64,000 nt of DNA from Opitutales bacterium. GTDB taxonomy: Bacteria > Verrucomicrobiota > Verrucomicrobiia > Opitutales > PNEW01. The position numbers and the translations under genes are program-made. The notes beneath the pieces were generated by a model. That model was not told the origin of the DNA, searched no databases, and saw only the letters and a list, made by a program, of their open reading frames with translations. Numbering within the stretch: position 1 is the first letter of the stretch; each line of letters opens with the position of its first letter. Location: NCBI GenBank assembly GCA_965197745.1, contig CBDANS010000006.1, forward strand, positions 1,344,001 to 1,408,000. The letters run 5' to 3'. Below are positions 12,101 through 19,907 of this stretch, in pieces.

Positions 12101-12249
12101 CGTCGTGTCGAGAGTCGCCTACGCTTCACTCGCGTTTGCGAGGACAAGAACGTACCACTCACGAATATACACAACTAATTGCGTATATTCGTGAGAGGTA
12201 GTTCAAAACGCGCTTTTAGCGCTAAGCGTAGGCGACTCTCGACACGACG
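12101..12249. repeat. ~150-nt four-way-junction palindromic element, copy A
   Basis: Perfect 26-bp terminal stem (12101-12126 / 12224-12249) enclosing three hairpins; homologous to 19678-19831. Confidence 0.85.
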
Positions 12250-12409
12250 GAACCTTTATCGCCCTATTAGAAACTAATCCGTGTAATCCGCGGTATTATT
12301 AAACTTTTTGCTTTCTCTCTCTCTCTTGTGCCTTTTGTGGCCAACTCTTTCTTTTGGCTATTCACCAATCAGCAATTGATATTAAATCTATTCTCTAACT
12401 ACAATTAAA

Positions 12410-13291
12410 TCACTTAATTTCAAATAGAGACCTCTGTTCATTTGAAATTATCAAACTGTTATCGTAAAAGCAGATACCTTCACAGGTTTTTCCGTTATTA
12501 AAAGGAAGCCATGATATTTTACCTTTAAAATAATCATCGGATCCATTCATGGTCTCAAACAGCCATACCGCACGATAAGTCAGAACGGTTAATTTACTGC
12601 CGTCGGAATTAGCATCCGCCGCGGTTACCTGGCTTCGTGTCTTAAATGAAGAGAGTAATTGAAGGACATTGACGGAGTCGGTATTTAAAGTATCGAATCG
12701 GTACAGCTTGGTGTTGTCATCTGCTCTATGTTTACTGAGTATATAAAGCTTATTCTTTGCATGGAATAATGCTTCAGCGTCAAAATTAAGTTTCTTTGCT
12801 GGATACTCTTTTTGGTCCGGATAGACAAAAGGTATCTTGAAAAGAATTCTCGTATTGTACCTTTCGTAAGGATTGGGTTCAGTGAGGATATAGATCGCTA
12901 AATCGCGTCTCGCATTGGCATTGTTTCCAAAGGCTCCGATGATAAGATTTTTGTTGTCATCCATGGTGATATCTTCCCAGTCGACATTGACCGCATCGAG
13001 TATGATAACGCCCTCGTAAGGTTTATCACTCCATGAAGGAGCTATAATACTCCTGTCTTTTTTCACCGGAAATATACGCGCCATATCTCCGGAATCATTG
13101 TGAGTCCATATCACTTCTGGCCAGAGTCTGCTTCTCACGATCCCCGACGACTCTTTTATCGGTTCAAAATTCAAGTTACCAGTGGCCTTTAATTCTACTG
13201 GTTCTACATCGGGTAAAGATAACGAATCATTTGCCTCCCCCCATGATATTAGAATAAAGGAGAGGACTAATAAAAATAGAGATTTATTCAT
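12410..13291 (-). CDS. Secreted hypothetical protein, probable beta-propeller
   Basis: Signal peptide; ESSG, WTHNDSG, DWEDI, FDAEA and EGI motifs. Confidence 0.7.
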   Translation of the reverse strand: MNKSLFLLVLSFILISWGEANDSLSLPDVEPVELKATGNLNFEPIKESSGIVRSRLWPEVIWTHNDSGDMARIFPVKKDRSIIAPSWSDKPYEGVIILDAVNVDWEDITMDDNKNLIIGAFGNNANARRDLAIYILTEPNPYERYNTRILFKIPFVYPDQKEYPAKKLNFDAEALFHAKNKLYILSKHRADDNTKLYRFDTLNTDSVNVLQLLSSFKTRSQVTAADANSDGSKLTVLTYRAVWLFETMNGSDDYFKGKISWLPFNNGKTCEGICFYDNSLIISNEQRSLFEIK

Positions 13292-13304
13292 TTGAGATAC
13301 TTAT

Positions 13305-13366
13305 TATTGCCGGTTTTTAACCACGAATGAACACGAATAGGAATTTAAAGGTAAAGAGATAGGCAC
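13305..13366 (+). repeat. 62-bp direct repeat, copy 1 (copy 2 at 14420-14481)
   Basis: 59/62 identical; contains the CACGAATGAACACGAAT motif. Confidence 0.9.
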
Positions 13367-13599
13367 GAGGGCGATTAAAATAGAATGGAGAGCCACGCGT
13401 TAACTGTCGGCCATAGCCCACCGGGCGACGGATGATCATGGCCGTTATTATGCATTGTCATTGCGAGGATCCCGTATCTGCGGGGACGAAGCAATCCAGA
13501 AATTATGACTCAATATATATGTTGTGATTACCACTGTGAATATCTTTTATTTTGAATCATGGATCTTTCATCCCAAATTCGAATAATTATCATACCTAG

Positions 13600-14409
13600 G
13601 TGAATAGGAAAACAATGAGATATAAACTCCTCTGCGTATTCTTCTTATTTATCTCGGGTTGTTACACTGTACCTGAGACGGGCCGTAGCGCACTTAGCTT
13701 TATTCCCGATGCAGAATTAAAAGCGTTGTCTCTCCAGGAGTTCTCACGGTTAAAAATGACAGAAAGGATTTCCAGAAATTATGAAATGAACAATCGGGTA
13801 GAACGCATTGGGCATAATATCGCCCGGGTAGTGGGCAAGGATATCCCCGGTGCGGAATGGGAATTTGTCGTATTTGAGAACGACAATTTGATTAATGCTT
13901 TTGCCTTAGCGGGAGGTAAAGTGGGTGTCTATACCGGAATGCTTAAGATCGCGACTACTGACGATCTGCTAGCTACGGTCATTGGACATGAAATTGCGCA
14001 CGTTTCCGCTAAGCATGGCAATGAACGCCTTTCTCAGGGATTGTTAGTTGAGTTGGTTGGTAGTGGTTTAGAATCTGCGTTGGAAGATGACGACAGTGAT
14101 GAAAATAAGGAAAAAACCCGCCAGGCGATACTAAATGCCTATGGGTTGGGATCAATGGTAGGATACCTCCTACCATTCAGCCGACTTCAGGAAAATGAAG
14201 CCGATCATATAGGAGTACTCTACGCCGCTCGTGCCGGCTACGATCCTAGGGCTGCAATTGAATTGTGGCAAATGATGTCCAATAAGAAAAATTATTCTCC
14301 TCCTGCTTTTCTTACCTCACACCCGGCAGATCAGACCCGTATCAACAGGTTAAAAGAAAACCTGCCATTTGCCATGCGTGAATACGAAGCTGCGCGGGCA
14401 AGAGAATAA
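13600..14409 (+). CDS. M48 family metallopeptidase lipoprotein
   Basis: NAFALAGG, GHEIAH, FSRLQENEAD and SHP motifs; lipobox ISGC. Confidence 0.92.
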   Translation: MNRKTMRYKLLCVFFLFISGCYTVPETGRSALSFIPDAELKALSLQEFSRLKMTERISRNYEMNNRVERIGHNIARVVGKDIPGAEWEFVVFENDNLINAFALAGGKVGVYTGMLKIATTDDLLATVIGHEIAHVSAKHGNERLSQGLLVELVGSGLESALEDDDSDENKEKTRQAILNAYGLGSMVGYLLPFSRLQENEADHIGVLYAARAGYDPRAAIELWQMMSNKKNYSPPAFLTSHPADQTRINRLKENLPFAMREYEAARARE

Positions 14410-14419
14410 TGGGCGAGAA

Positions 14420-17853: not shown

Positions 17854-17888
17854 TTTTCAATTGTCGATTGCCGATTGATTAATTATAC

Positions 17889-17988
17889 TAACCGCTGAGT
17901 CGCAGGGTTCGCCGAGATTTTTTAATTTGGGATTTCTTTTTCTTGGGTTTAAAGCTTTTTACTCTGCGTTCTCCGTGTCTCTGCGGTA
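17889..17988. repeat. ACCGCAGAG-family inverted-repeat element
   Basis: TAACCGCTGAGTCGCAGGG ... CTCTGCGTTCTCCGTGTCTCTGCGGTA, itself flanked by inward-facing CGATT/AATC heptamers. Confidence 0.75.
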
Positions 17989-18025
17989 TATTTCTTCAAT
18001 CAATAATAGGCAATGGTATGTGAAA

Positions 18026-19282
18026 TCAGAAATTAAGCAGGCGAATACTCAGGTAACTGAGTAAGCCGACCGAACACGCGGCCACTAATCCTACTAGAAG
18101 GGGTTTCAGACCAAGGGTTTTTATTTTAGAAAAACTTGTACTCAGCCCAAGCGAAGCCATAGCGAGCGTTAAACACCAGGTCACCACGGAGTGAGCTCCC
18201 ATTAAAAAATTATCCCAGGATTCCTGAGTGAAAACGGCAAAAGGTTTATCGCCGATATCGCCAAGAGAACGTATTATAGCCATGCATACAAAGACCACTA
18301 CGAATAGAGGGACCATTTGATGCCAGCGCGGGGGCTTCGTTTCAGAGGATTGTTCGCTGTCTTGCGCGCGCTGATAAAGCAGGGCCATAGTAGGTATCAC
18401 TACAATCATAAACAGGTTGCGAATTAATTTTGTGACCGTTGCCTCATCGAGAACCTGTGGCTCGAGATAGTGTTGCGCGTAAATTAATCCGGCTCCCGTG
18501 ACCTGTGAGGTATCGTGGATAGCGGTGCCCAGGAAGACACCGGCTTGATGAGCGTTTCCATCAAAAATCCAATGGGCGAAGTAGGGATAGAGAACGAGAC
18601 CGCACAATCCGTATAAGGTTACACAAGCAACGGCATAACTGACTTCATCTTCTTTTGCTTTAATCCCCACGGAAGCGGCAACTACCGCGCTTACTCCGCA
18701 TATGCTGGTCCCGACGGCTATCAGGGTCCCCAGGCGTGGCGGTAAATGTAATAGTCGTGTGAGCCCTGATACAATGAGTAGTGCGCCAATGATGCTAATA
18801 ACCACCACGGGCAGGCTATTTATTCCAATTTGCCCGATTGCAGCCATACTCAACCGCAATCCCAGCAGAGCAATACCAATTCTGAGGAGTCGCCTTACAC
18901 AAAAAACTAACCCGGGGACGTATTCGTCGGGAACCCCGATAATATTCCTGAAAGCAATACCGAAAATAATTATGAGCACGATCGGGCTTAAAGGGCTTTT
19001 TTCAAATCCCATAATCGTAATCCCCAACCAACTTGATATAATTCTGGCGAAGCTAGCCAGAACCAGAGCTAAAATGATTCCCGGAATAAGACCTGATAGA
19101 TCTGATAAAAATTTAAATAGTGCCGTGTCCGCTTTTTGCTCTTCAGGTATTGTCGTATCAATTCCGGCAAAATTGTCCCAATCCAAATCGCCCTCCATAC
19201 TTGCGAGAGAATTAGCCTGCTCGAGACTGAGATCAGCAAACCTTCTCTTCTGTCTGCTTAGGTTGCTGAGCTTACTATTCAT
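18026..19282 (-). CDS. YeiH / putative sulfate exporter family membrane protein
   Basis: GIALLG, GTSICGVSA, GTAIHDTSQV and TKLIRN motifs; start moved to ATG 19282 because the longer ORF runs through the tRNA. Confidence 0.9.
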   Translation of the reverse strand: MNSKLSNLSRQKRRFADLSLEQANSLASMEGDLDWDNFAGIDTTIPEEQKADTALFKFLSDLSGLIPGIILALVLASFARIISSWLGITIMGFEKSPLSPIVLIIIFGIAFRNIIGVPDEYVPGLVFCVRRLLRIGIALLGLRLSMAAIGQIGINSLPVVVISIIGALLIVSGLTRLLHLPPRLGTLIAVGTSICGVSAVVAASVGIKAKEDEVSYAVACVTLYGLCGLVLYPYFAHWIFDGNAHQAGVFLGTAIHDTSQVTGAGLIYAQHYLEPQVLDEATVTKLIRNLFMIVVIPTMALLYQRAQDSEQSSETKPPRWHQMVPLFVVVFVCMAIIRSLGDIGDKPFAVFTQESWDNFLMGAHSVVTWCLTLAMASLGLSTSFSKIKTLGLKPLLVGLVAACSVGLLSYLSIRLLNF

Positions 19283-19312
19283 GGGTGCGAGTAGGTCTAT
19301 AAAGCGAAAAGG

Positions 19313-19388
19313 TGGTGGCGAGACCCAGAATCGAACTGGGGACACAAGGATTTTCAGTCCTCTGCTCTACCAACTGAGCTATCTCGCC
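19313..19388 (-). tRNA. tRNA-Phe (GAA)
   Basis: Reverse complement GGCGAGATAGCTCAGTTGGTAGAGCAGAGGACTGAAAATCCTTGTGTCCCCAGTTCGATTCTGGGTCTCGCCACCA, 76 nt cloverleaf with encoded CCA. Confidence 0.98.
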
Positions 19389-19470
19389 ATGTTCTCCGCT
19401 TGGAAATTTGTGGATATAGACAAAATCTCCTTATTCCGTCAATTATCGATTATCGAATGTTTTCTGAAGA

Positions 19471-19907
19471 TTTACCGCTGAGACGCAAAGGGCGCTGAGA
19501 AATTAGTTTAGAATTTACTAAAGCTGATTTTCAAACCTTTAACTTTACGTGCTCCAATGCTTTGCGGTGATTCAAAGCATCCTAACCGCGAATAACACGG
19601 ATTGATACGGATGGAGAGGTATAGAGTGTAAAATTCACGAATATAAAATAGCTAAAAAAACATAGACAAAGAGGGGTTTTCGTCGGGCAGAGAATCACCT
19701 GTGCTATGCGCAAAAGCGCATTTTGAACTGGCTACTTACGAATATACACAACGAGTTGCGTATATTCGTAAGTAGTCGTTTTTGTACTCGCAAACGCGAG
19801 TGAAGCACAGGTGATTCTCTGCCCGACGAAACCCTTAATCTACTTATCCGCATAATTCGTTTAATCTGCGGTATTAAACTCTGCGTCCTCCGCGTCTCTG
19901 CGGTAAA
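19471..19907. repeat. Composite nested repeat cassette carrying four-way-junction element copy B (19678-19831)
   Basis: ACCGCTGAG outer arms, ACCGCG..ACGGAT inner arms, central 28-bp perfect stem; near-identical inverted copy without the central element at 25242-25480. Confidence 0.85.

Follow-up and report, generated by a model that had tools for sequence, protein, structure and literature searches.

Branched hairpins of 60-150 nt in which structure is conserved over sequence, with an interior that occurs both ways between fixed arms, characterize integron attC sites and parvovirus ITRs; the core order of attC is the reverse of 5'-GTT...AAC-3'. REPINs, as described in PMC3116915, combine invariant ends with a hairpin spacer in which compensatory changes are common, and have an alternative 'clover' fold with two small hairpins. 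MITEs such as Correia and ERIC are reported to affect mRNA via their stems, Correia elements being cut by RNase III (PMC2229807; PMC2649163), and the targets of YPAL are described as spanning or adjoining dyad symmetry (PMC2229807). The repeats of Ssn nucleases (NTS/SRM) are small hairpins recognised as single-stranded DNA through both sequence and structure, according to PMC11893778.

The window analysed here, the whole 64,000-nt stretch of DNA from an Opitutales genome, contains two copies (A and B) of X, a non-coding palindromic DNA module of ~155 bp that forms a cloverleaf, or four-way junction, when single-stranded. Both copies and their four-way-junction fold had been reported in the initial annotation and were recovered here, with folding from either strand (z about -16). 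Five copies of X were compared in total, namely three from the source genome (A, B, and C) and two from the MAG G001 and a metagenome contig (D and E), and are located as follows.

12098..12252, h1-first ('S') strand +: copy A (X_A), 171.4 bits with model R1
12101..12126: 5' arm of the copy A closing stem, pairing perfectly with 12224-12249 (26 bp)
12224..12249: 3' arm of the copy A closing stem, partner of 12101-12126
12127..12142, + strand: small hairpin h1 of copy A (CACTCGCGTTTGCGAG), near-invariant
12148..12204: long central hairpin of copy A, with a GAAC/GTTC base and one A.C mismatch on the + strand
12210..12222, + strand: small hairpin h2 of copy A (GCGC-TTTTA-GCGC)
19675..19834, h1-first strand -: copy B (X_B), with model R1 174.3 bits on - and 118.3 on +
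19675-19705 and 19804-19834: closing-stem arms of copy B, 31 nt with one mismatch
19787..19800, - strand: h1 hairpin of copy B, the - strand reading CTCGCGTTTGCGAG
19708..19719, - strand: h2 hairpin of copy B, the - strand reading GCGCTTTTGCGC
G000:C6:365815-365973: copy C, the third copy within the source Opitutales genome
G001:C1:1155839-1155996: copy in a related Opitutales MAG
L012:499-658: copy in a metagenome contig

X comprises a closing stem of 26-31 bp, two small GC hairpins with T-rich loops, and a central hairpin of 25-30 bp, the consensus of the small hairpins being CTCGC-RTTT-GCGAG for h1 and GCGC-TTTW-GCGC for h2. In copies A and B, the order is closing stem, small hairpin, long central hairpin, and small hairpin, with the same fold from either strand, minimum free energies of -95 to -101 kcal/mol (z = -15 to -16.6), and none of 200 shuffles folding equally well. 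X was found in two of the 401 Opitutales genomes searched. The five copies share 64-80% identity in a star-like pattern (64-78% among the three source-genome copies), with no near-identical recent pair among them, and this pattern together with the very low copy number means that recent transposition is not demonstrated. Next to the copies lie genes of metabolism or, in some cases, GxxExxY. Since the three source-genome copies and those of G001 and the metagenome contig occupy five different gene neighbourhoods, with metabolic neighbours that are unrelated, X is a repeat family and not a single gene.

The covariation first noticed between copies A and B, where all seven differences among 25 aligned arm positions are indeed compensated (7/7), extended to the larger set. 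Across the five-copy alignment, paired cells amount to 93.3% and both partners have changed in 23 of the 66 pairs, a number reached in 0 of 500 shuffles, while slid controls gave 1-3 such pairs. These changes are restricted to the two long helices (15/30 and 8/26 pairs), the closing stem having 94% of its cells paired versus 91.5% for the central hairpin, whereas the short hairpins show no covarying pair (0/10) and are invariant in sequence. The h1 hairpin (CACTCGCRTTTGCGAG) is almost unchanged, with 14 of 16 columns invariant in the five copies against 37-49% in the long stems; stretches with no more than one variable column run to 16 columns at most, a length that 33 of 5000 shuffles also reached. 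A host function could account for this conservation across the three genomes just as well. Within the genome, the h1 motif is confined to X, with no stand-alone REP-like occurrence. Non-Watson-Crick pairs read on the h1-first strand comprise seven G.T and 10 A.C (the latter being G.T on the opposite strand) and thus reveal no strand preference. Arm homogenisation without function, a caveat raised by the initial annotation itself, is a live explanation for the covariation.

Nested inversions with swapped side hairpins, within flanks and a central A.C mismatch of unchanged orientation, had been proposed to relate copies A and B. Our alignments do not support this reading. The best A-to-B alignment is plus/minus across the entire element (79.5% identity), showing that copy B is inverted as one unit relative to its flanks. 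Read h1-first, the central mismatch position is A-U in C, A.C in A and D, and G.U in B, the latter two states being single transitions from A-U, and the apical loop CAAC-TC-GTTG is common to B and E only if B is read as one fully inverted unit. Given these transitions and the shared loop, one whole-element inversion suffices. Both orientations of X occur against the same flanks, with A, C, and D one way and B and E the opposite way. No strand-changing joint at X was present in the natural-sample contigs placed on the locus, and ongoing flipping is not demonstrated.

X is always nested among other inverted-repeat modules, and whole spacers fold as nested palindromes. Around copies A and B, the host repeat H and the module K are arranged as follows.

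11959..12097, + strand: left part of host repeat H at copy A; its homologue 19566-19674 has the same orientation
12253..12300, + strand: right part of H at copy A (GAACCTTTATC ... ATCCGTGTAATCCGCGGTATTA)
19527..19674, + strand: left part of H at copy B, 96% to 25334-25481
19831..19917, + strand: right part of H at copy B, 92% to 25232-25318
25232..25481, - strand: empty host repeat H, with copy B's flanks but without X, the site reading ...AGAGGA GAAACCC TTTATC...
11831..11871, + strand: K module (AGCCACA..GCACAAAAGGCACAAAA), pairing with its inverted copy at 12320-12361 and so enclosing the whole A region
12320..12361, + strand: K' module, inverted partner of K

The flanks of the empty H repeat match those of copy B at 96% and about 92-93% identity, and further H copies also are without X. 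A joint 19674->19836 corresponds to the empty H paralogue at 25232..25481. Matches in the genome number 53 for K, 27 for R, and 23 for the H terminal repeat. The R arms around copy B are only ~80% complementary, indicating that this outer repeat layer is not homogenised. The flanks of A and B share 81% identity over 79 nt and the elements themselves 78-79.5%; the closing stems are still perfect although flanks and elements have diverged about equally, which suits maintenance in place, whether through function or through correction, better than a new insertion. None of the five copies is bounded by a direct target-site duplication. The flanks are partly complementary instead, as with GGGTTT...AAACCC at copy B, and left flanks partly complement a conserved right-flank motif, GRAACC, that is also present in empty sites.

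Comparisons between genomes revealed extensive presence/absence variation. The spacer orthologous to the ADH-tRNA one contains nothing but K..K' in G001, while G002 has other palindromes there, and the adenine-deaminase spacer is repeat-free in both. The GxxExxY-K-X-K' block of G001 is wholly missing from the corresponding position in G002 and G003. X stands directly downstream of a GxxExxY gene in both G001 and the metagenome contig; the two genes are homologous, and the K..K' blocks in which X lies are at different loci. No GxxExxY gene or remnant is detectable at copies A, B, and C (best tblastn E-value, 0.66). Variation was also observed within natural populations at copy A, in the form of the following deletion.

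12044..12338: segregating 295-bp deletion that removes X_A together with some of H and some of the K' module, with a 3-bp GGC microhomology at its bounds

In run X4, a 1599-nt contig (depth, 14.6) joins 12043 to 12339, and run X1 shows a bubble at copy A with ~10x coverage each with and without the 295-bp segment. The host can do without a given X copy, and copy A is dispensable.

With Rfam at the gathering threshold, a tRNA at 19316-19388 was the sole match in the whole window and none fell at X, in agreement with the initial annotation, which had recognised no known family; sub-threshold matches at X were to generic long-hairpin miRNA models, the best of them reaching 60.5 bits where the gathering score is 211. 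Promoter- and terminator-like sites at X did not exceed those of shuffles, and none was common to A and B, giving no dedicated promoter or terminator. A search of the 4.45-Mb assembly (92% complete) for a parent element carrying the arms of A, B, or C, allowing at most five mismatches, matched only X copies, and no match to X was found among plasmids, phages, and viral contigs. No transposase, recombinase, reverse transcriptase, or replication gene lies next to X at any of the five copies, and a retron ncRNA (msr/msd) was rejected because no reverse-transcriptase gene stands beside them. The single Y1-transposase gene of the genome (PF01797, C6:163380-163706) is flanked by 16-bp repeats, GGGTCAGACTGCGAAT, unrelated to X. 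The published SRM motif, as given in PMC11893778, had no match on either strand of the five copies with 30-nt flanks. By formal criteria, X is not a classical bacterial MITE, having inverted repeats of 26-31 bp but no duplication, parent IS, or amplification (three copies). It is likewise no REPIN, for there is no cognate RAYT with the same REP and three copies compare with tens to hundreds per genome. Compared with the REPIN layout of two inverted REP motifs and a spacer that forms a hairpin, X has a hairpin whose changes are compensated and a pair of small conserved palindromes; h1 and h2, however, carry their T-rich loops on the same strand and are located within the stem.

Taken together, the absence of strand bias, the null results for promoters and terminators, the confinement of covariation to the long arms, and the repeat mosaic favour a DNA-level palindrome over an RNA gene, and X is most likely a selfish or relic repeat and not a new RNA gene. 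Our preferred reading, held with evenly balanced confidence, is that X is a REPIN/MITE-like palindromic DNA module, non-autonomous or relic, belonging to the intergenic repeat mosaic of a small Opitutales family. Under this reading, the single strand that folds into the cloverleaf could be DNA, as in replication forks and transposition intermediates, or incidentally RNA produced by read-through. The invariant small hairpins may be what a hairpin-binding enzyme acting in trans recognises, whereas the long stems would need only to pair, their pairing being upheld through selection when X propagates, through correction of one inverted arm by the other (template switching or gene conversion), or through a combination of the two. 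Inverted-repeat recombination of this kind could also flip the interior, as in B versus A and E versus D. Points counted against this reading are the lack of a target duplication, a parent element, and an adjacent enzyme, the low copy number, and the lack of signs of recent transposition, together with the perfect closing stems between diverged flanks, the strong conservation of h1, and the missing strand-changing joint at X.

It is unlikely, though not far-fetched, that X instead acts as a functional structured RNA, whether in cis from a 3' UTR or spacer (as an RNase III site, transcript stabiliser, or insulator) or as a small RNA with protein-binding h1 and h2 loops, with selection on RNA folding keeping the stems. 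The very stable fold, the covariation, and the conservation of the junction and h1 sequence in three genomes are consistent with such a role. Every copy has at least one gene ending upstream of it, h1-first is the sense strand at both loci with co-directional neighbours (B and C), and Correia and ERIC set a precedent for effects on mRNA via stems (PMC2229807; PMC2649163). Against it stand the Rfam and promoter/terminator results, the unbiased non-Watson-Crick pairs, the short helices without covariation, the occurrence of both orientations in homologous contexts, the deletion of copy A in part of the population, and the narrow distribution among Opitutales genomes. A functionless relic palindrome, with neutral decay of old duplicates, in which template switching or arm conversion would keep the arms identical and sometimes flip the interior, appears quite improbable. 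It would account for covariation limited to two long inverted repeats and for the missing wobble bias, for an A-B stem divergence (7/25 positions) close to the overall and flank divergence of roughly 20%, for the GRAACC complementarity that makes the palindrome seem to extend outward, and for the two orientations and the dispensability of copy A. However, h1 is too conserved for neutral decay, outer layers such as the R arms at B are not homogenised, and the arms of the central hairpin, although closest together, pair no better than the closing stem. We hold it very doubtful that X serves an undescribed hairpin-dependent system as its folded single-strand site for recombination or priming (by analogy with attC, folded phage attP, or parvovirus flip/flop) and would move or resolve K-bounded GxxExxY-type blocks or cassettes, with h1 and h2 as putative protein-recognition hairpins and a flip/flop interior. 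Structure conserved over sequence, invariant small hairpins, the GxxExxY-linked K..K' blocks, the indel nature of the G001 block relative to G002 and G003, and an interior that flips while the arms stay, as flip/flop hairpins might, all point in this direction. The absence of a recombinase or replication gene nearby, of GxxExxY at A, B, and C, and of plasmid, phage, or viral matches, ends in the reverse of the attC order, and a total of only five copies argue otherwise.

If X is indeed a palindromic DNA repeat, compensatory changes in a large four-way junction, usually read as the signature of a functional RNA, can arise in such DNA. Our results also document, in a little-studied lineage of Verrucomicrobia, nested palindromic modules that form a rich and rapidly changing mosaic. 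X is the innermost member of this mosaic, and its sharply conserved small hairpin is predicted to have a protein partner, the identity of which would explain how such mosaics get built.

Compared with known systems, X resembles integron attC sites and parvovirus ITRs, by analogy, in conserving structure over sequence and in having its interior in both orientations. In contrast to attC, however, it ends in 5'-GTT...AAC-3' and, as we read the locus, has neither an integrase nor a cassette array beside it, and unlike a parvovirus ITR it is not at a linear end, nothing tying it to rolling-hairpin replication. Relative to the Ssn-nuclease repeats, X is five times longer and branched, and lacks the SRM motif. 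With Correia/NEMIS, ERIC, and YPAL, it shares a length of 100-170 bp, long terminal inverted repeats, an intergenic location in either orientation, and both filled and empty sites, but it has no target-site duplication, TA termini, or parent IS with the same ends, and it is a branched four-way junction with variable stems and fixed internal hairpins, not a simple stem-loop. X departs from REPINs in having its invariant hairpins inside and its variable stems outside and at the centre, in its three copies per genome, in the unrelated repeats of the Y1 gene, and in the lack of stand-alone h1. Like REPIN/RAYT and BIME-type mosaics, it is nevertheless an intergenic non-coding palindrome of ~100-150 nt that combines short invariant motifs with a compensated hairpin and forms mosaics with other palindromes.

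The sequence of the window confirmed the positions at which the initial annotation had placed two copies of a ~155-bp cloverleaf palindromic element, as well as the perfect 26-bp outer stem of copy A, the compensation of all seven differences between the arms of copies A and B, and the four-way junction: in both copies the closing stem opens into a long central hairpin flanked by two small ones. The outer stem of copy B, described as a perfect 28-bp helix, does have long arms, but these measure 31 nt and contain one mismatch. The cloverleaf was obtained on either strand of both copies with minimum free energies of -95 to -101 kcal/mol (z = -15 to -16.6), and none of 200 dinucleotide shuffles folded as well. 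In line with the annotation, which recognised no known family, no relevant Rfam family was found at gathering score, nor at E-values up to 10. A third copy, C, turned up in BLAST searches and with R1, a covariance model combining copy A in plus orientation, copy B in minus orientation and copy C itself; the 4.45-Mb assembly (G000) contains these three and no more, and two further copies were recovered elsewhere.

Copies of the element and their neighbours
12098-12252 of the window: copy A, closing stem 12101-12126 / 12224-12249; adenine deaminase gene and an uncharacterised 293-aa ORF
19675-19834 of the window: copy B; zinc-ADH gene and a tRNA gene
G000:C6:365815-365973 (contig C6 of this genome): copy C; M24 peptidase gene and a WelO5-like gene
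G001:C1:1155839-1155996 (a relative): copy D; GxxExxY gene and a TPP-enzyme gene
L012:499-658 (a metagenome contig): copy E; GxxExxY gene and an uncharacterised ORF

Applied to G000 and 60 relatives, R1 matched only 2 of 61 genomes, namely G000 and G001, which belongs to the same family but a different genus. A pattern comprising small hairpin h1 plus the junction matched one stretch among GTDB species genomes, again in the record of G001 (an Opitutales MAG), two among metagenome contigs, one being the full copy E (145 bits), and none among viral contigs; the second metagenome stretch (L011, 8 bits) was rejected as a chance match to h1. The bare 16-nt h1 motif occurred in 2 of 401 Opitutales genomes, and distant BLAST searches of copy A against plasmids and phages gave no match. 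The searches thus establish a genuine family with very few members that is, within their reach, restricted to a single lineage. Literature searching, which was not aimed at this particular element, returned nothing relevant to it. An apparent link between the central hairpin and a CGAATATACAGAAC repeat on contig C7 was dismissed as a fortuitous overlap with a separate, promoter-like motif. This ~50-nt motif (TTGACAAC ATTATCCCCATACGCGAATATACAGAACTTTAGAACCACTTGTT) has about a dozen copies on C7 (for example, at 26878, 50466, 53036, 1108079, 1110126, 1605129-1605930 and 2054075), three of them within 800 bp, and may be a regulon signal.

The five copies, all placed in the h1-first orientation (alignment A2), share 64-80% pairwise identity in a star-like pattern. 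Standard pairs fill 93.3% of pair cells and two-sided changes occur in 23 of 66 pairs, values reached by none of 500 column shuffles, and slid controls gave only one to three such pairs. These changes are confined to the long helices (15 of 30 pairs in the closing stem and 8 of 26 in the central hairpin, versus 0 of 6 in h1 and 0 of 4 in h2), and the sequence of both small hairpins is nearly fixed. In h1 (CACTCGCRTTTGCGAG), 14 of 16 columns are invariant, compared with 37-49% for the two long helices; a stretch of 16 columns, the longest with at most one variable column, was reached by 33 of 5000 shuffles.

Copies A and B differ in orientation. Their flanks, which belong to a larger host repeat (H), run in the same direction, while the best alignment of the elements themselves is plus/minus over the whole length (79.5%), the plus/plus alignment covering no more than 47 nt within the central hairpin, which is near-symmetric; R1 likewise scored copy B at 174 bits on the minus strand and 118 on the plus strand. 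The nested inversions proposed in the initial annotation are unnecessary, a single inversion of the whole element being sufficient. In a common orientation, the central "mismatch" is A-U in copy C, A.C in A and D, and G.U in B, the latter two states being single transitions from A-U, and the apical loop of B (CAAC-TC-GTTG) is that of E only when B is read as one wholly inverted unit. Copies D and E provide a second case, since they are inverted relative to each other despite homologous contexts (a GxxExxY gene, then repeats of an intergenic module, K) that are colinear at 80.7% over 610 nt. No strand-changing joint at the element was seen in Logan contigs covering the region, a data type that drops rare variants and could therefore miss rare isomers.

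Copies A, B and C occupy the same point of H, whose imperfect terminal inverted repeats are ACCGCGGATTACACGGAT / ATCCGTGTAATCCGCGGT; in D and E, ~15 nt of H remain to the left and a portion of it to the right. Genome-wide, the H terminal repeat has 23 matches (≤3 mismatches), K (AGCCACAAAAGGCACAAAA) has 53 (≤3 mismatches) and another inverted-repeat module, R (ACCGCAGAGGCGCAGAG), has 27 (≤2 mismatches). Together with TCGATTG heptamer runs, these form mosaics in which whole spacers fold as nested palindromes, the element being innermost. Heptamer runs, K modules (GCACAAAAG repeats) and R modules, often in inverted pairs, are also found in spacers across the window (for example, 9854-9923, 11831-11871, 17841-17888, 25230-25274, 26453-26515 and 28258-28302). 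A GxxExxY-family gene at 22149-22553 (-) (TIGR04256, E = 4.5e-45) lies between two 121-nt direct repeats with 97% identity to each other (22023-22143 and 22565-22685), each holding an inverted R pair, in a cassette-like layout. Farther along, at 28558-33238, two large ORFs carry repeated, putative FG-GAP/VCBS-like units, visible as DNA repeats 171-228 bp apart. No transposase, recombinase or reverse transcriptase gene flanks any of the five copies, and the spacers of A, B and C hold no GxxExxY remnants (best tblastn E-value, 0.66).

Several copies of H lack the element. One of them (25232-25481) matches the flanks of B at 96% and 93% identity, and its site reads ...AGAGGA-GAAACCC-TTTATC. Empty sites share the GRAACC of the element's right end, to which the left end of the element is complementary; no direct target duplication was detected. 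Inspection of the empty sites by eye reveals a short, imperfect dyad, GATAGGG-AA-CCCTGTATC being one example. Placement of the element in the apical loop of an H hairpin was rejected, as the folding of single-stranded empty sites was not superior to that of shuffled sequences (z = -1.29 and +1.01), and we therefore describe the empty site only as weakly dyad-symmetric.

Orthologous spacers vary in content. The ADH-tRNA spacer contains nothing but K and its inverted form, K', in G001 and other palindromes in the relative G002, the adenine-deaminase spacer is free of repeats in both, and the block of G001 made of the GxxExxY gene, K, copy D and K' has no counterpart at the corresponding position in G002 or in a further relative, G003. 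More generally, G002 carries different palindromic modules at sites holding K, R, H or the element in G000, such as AAGGTGGAACGCGGTGTCCCTACCGCGTT (twice) and a TTGTCATTGCGAGG...CCTCGCAATGAC palindrome in the spacer upstream of its TPP-enzyme gene (L021, contig C1); the latter resembles arms at 35753-35795 and 38857-38899 of the window. The mechanical ORF 18026-19345 (-) begins inside the tRNA gene next to copy B (19316-19388 (-), 72 bits) and is therefore over-extended. A conserved promoter-like stretch upstream of this tRNA (ATTGACGGAATAAAGAGATTTTGTCTATATCC) also occurs in G001 and G002, and the remaining spacer differs.

Four runs, drawn from three studies, provided the Logan contigs that were aligned to the region. 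In run X4, a 1599-nt contig (depth 14.6) joins 12043 straight to 12339, and in run X1, where flank depth is ~19-21, the unitig containing copy A and the joined form have depths of 9.96 and 9.8, respectively; the deletion allele thus accounts for the full depth in X4 and for roughly half of it in X1. The absent 295 bp (12044-12338) comprise copy A and parts of H and K', with a 3-bp GGC microhomology at the bounds. The right end of the gap falls within a K' unit found uninterrupted elsewhere, so the short form is the product of a deletion, as opposed to a site that never received the element. Natural populations can do without copy A. A joint from 19674 to 19836 proved to be the paralogue at 25232-25481 and was rejected as a polymorphism, and joints 12046->12275, 12061->12263 and 19565->19810 were left out for their short sides (22-28 nt). 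Contigs of all four runs, the best-matching run among them, also carry five extra bases (CTTAG) at full depth behind 12412, and the window may differ slightly in assembly around the stop of ORF 12410-13291 (-).

Among known systems, the published description of REPINs is the strongest parallel, and long-stem MITEs are a second. According to PMC2229807, RNase III cuts Correia elements, and YPAL integrates at or adjacent to dyad symmetry. The element departs from both groups. It has no target duplication and only three copies in the genome, all diverged, and the genome search turned up no IS with matching ends that could be its parent. The sole Y1-transposase (PF01797) gene of G000 belongs to an unrelated IS-like unit bounded by 16-bp inverted repeats (GGGTCAGACTGCGAAT, C6:162757-163803), with several ~170-bp miniatures that have both ends and no gene (C6:517352-517538, C6:520155-520341, C7:30077-30262 and C7:1100603-1100789). 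Y1 transposases were rejected as a discriminating partner, being present in G001 but also in G002, which lacks the element. The published SRM motif of Ssn-type hairpin repeats (PMC11893778) matched none of the five copies, and the element is not a repeat of that type. It seems to behave like a REPIN or MITE but falls outside both groups.

The feature itself is genuine and rests on solid statistics. Two observations weigh against a simple element of recent mobility: the flanks of A and B have diverged about as much as the elements while the stems stay perfect, and h1 is conserved across three genomes. Quasi-palindrome correction and inverted-repeat recombination are known mechanisms, and arm-to-arm correction or recombination between inverted arms could keep stems perfect despite flank divergence and would flip the interior as well. 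The RNA-like covariation is plausibly open to such a DNA-level explanation: non-Watson-Crick pairs on the h1-first strand comprise 7 G.T and 10 A.C, the latter being G.T on the opposite strand, and so show no strand bias, and promoter and terminator scans gave counts not above shuffles. The conservation of h1 implies a sequence-specific partner, belonging either to the element or to the host. A functional RNA is an unlikely reading, a pure relic palindrome slightly more so, and an undescribed single-strand recombination or priming site the least probable of these. Given the likeness to REPINs and MITEs, the departures from both, the perfect stems and the conserved h1, we therefore put a REPIN/MITE-like palindromic DNA module at about even chances, and the element is best filed as a new small family among the known bacterial palindromic intergenic repeats.
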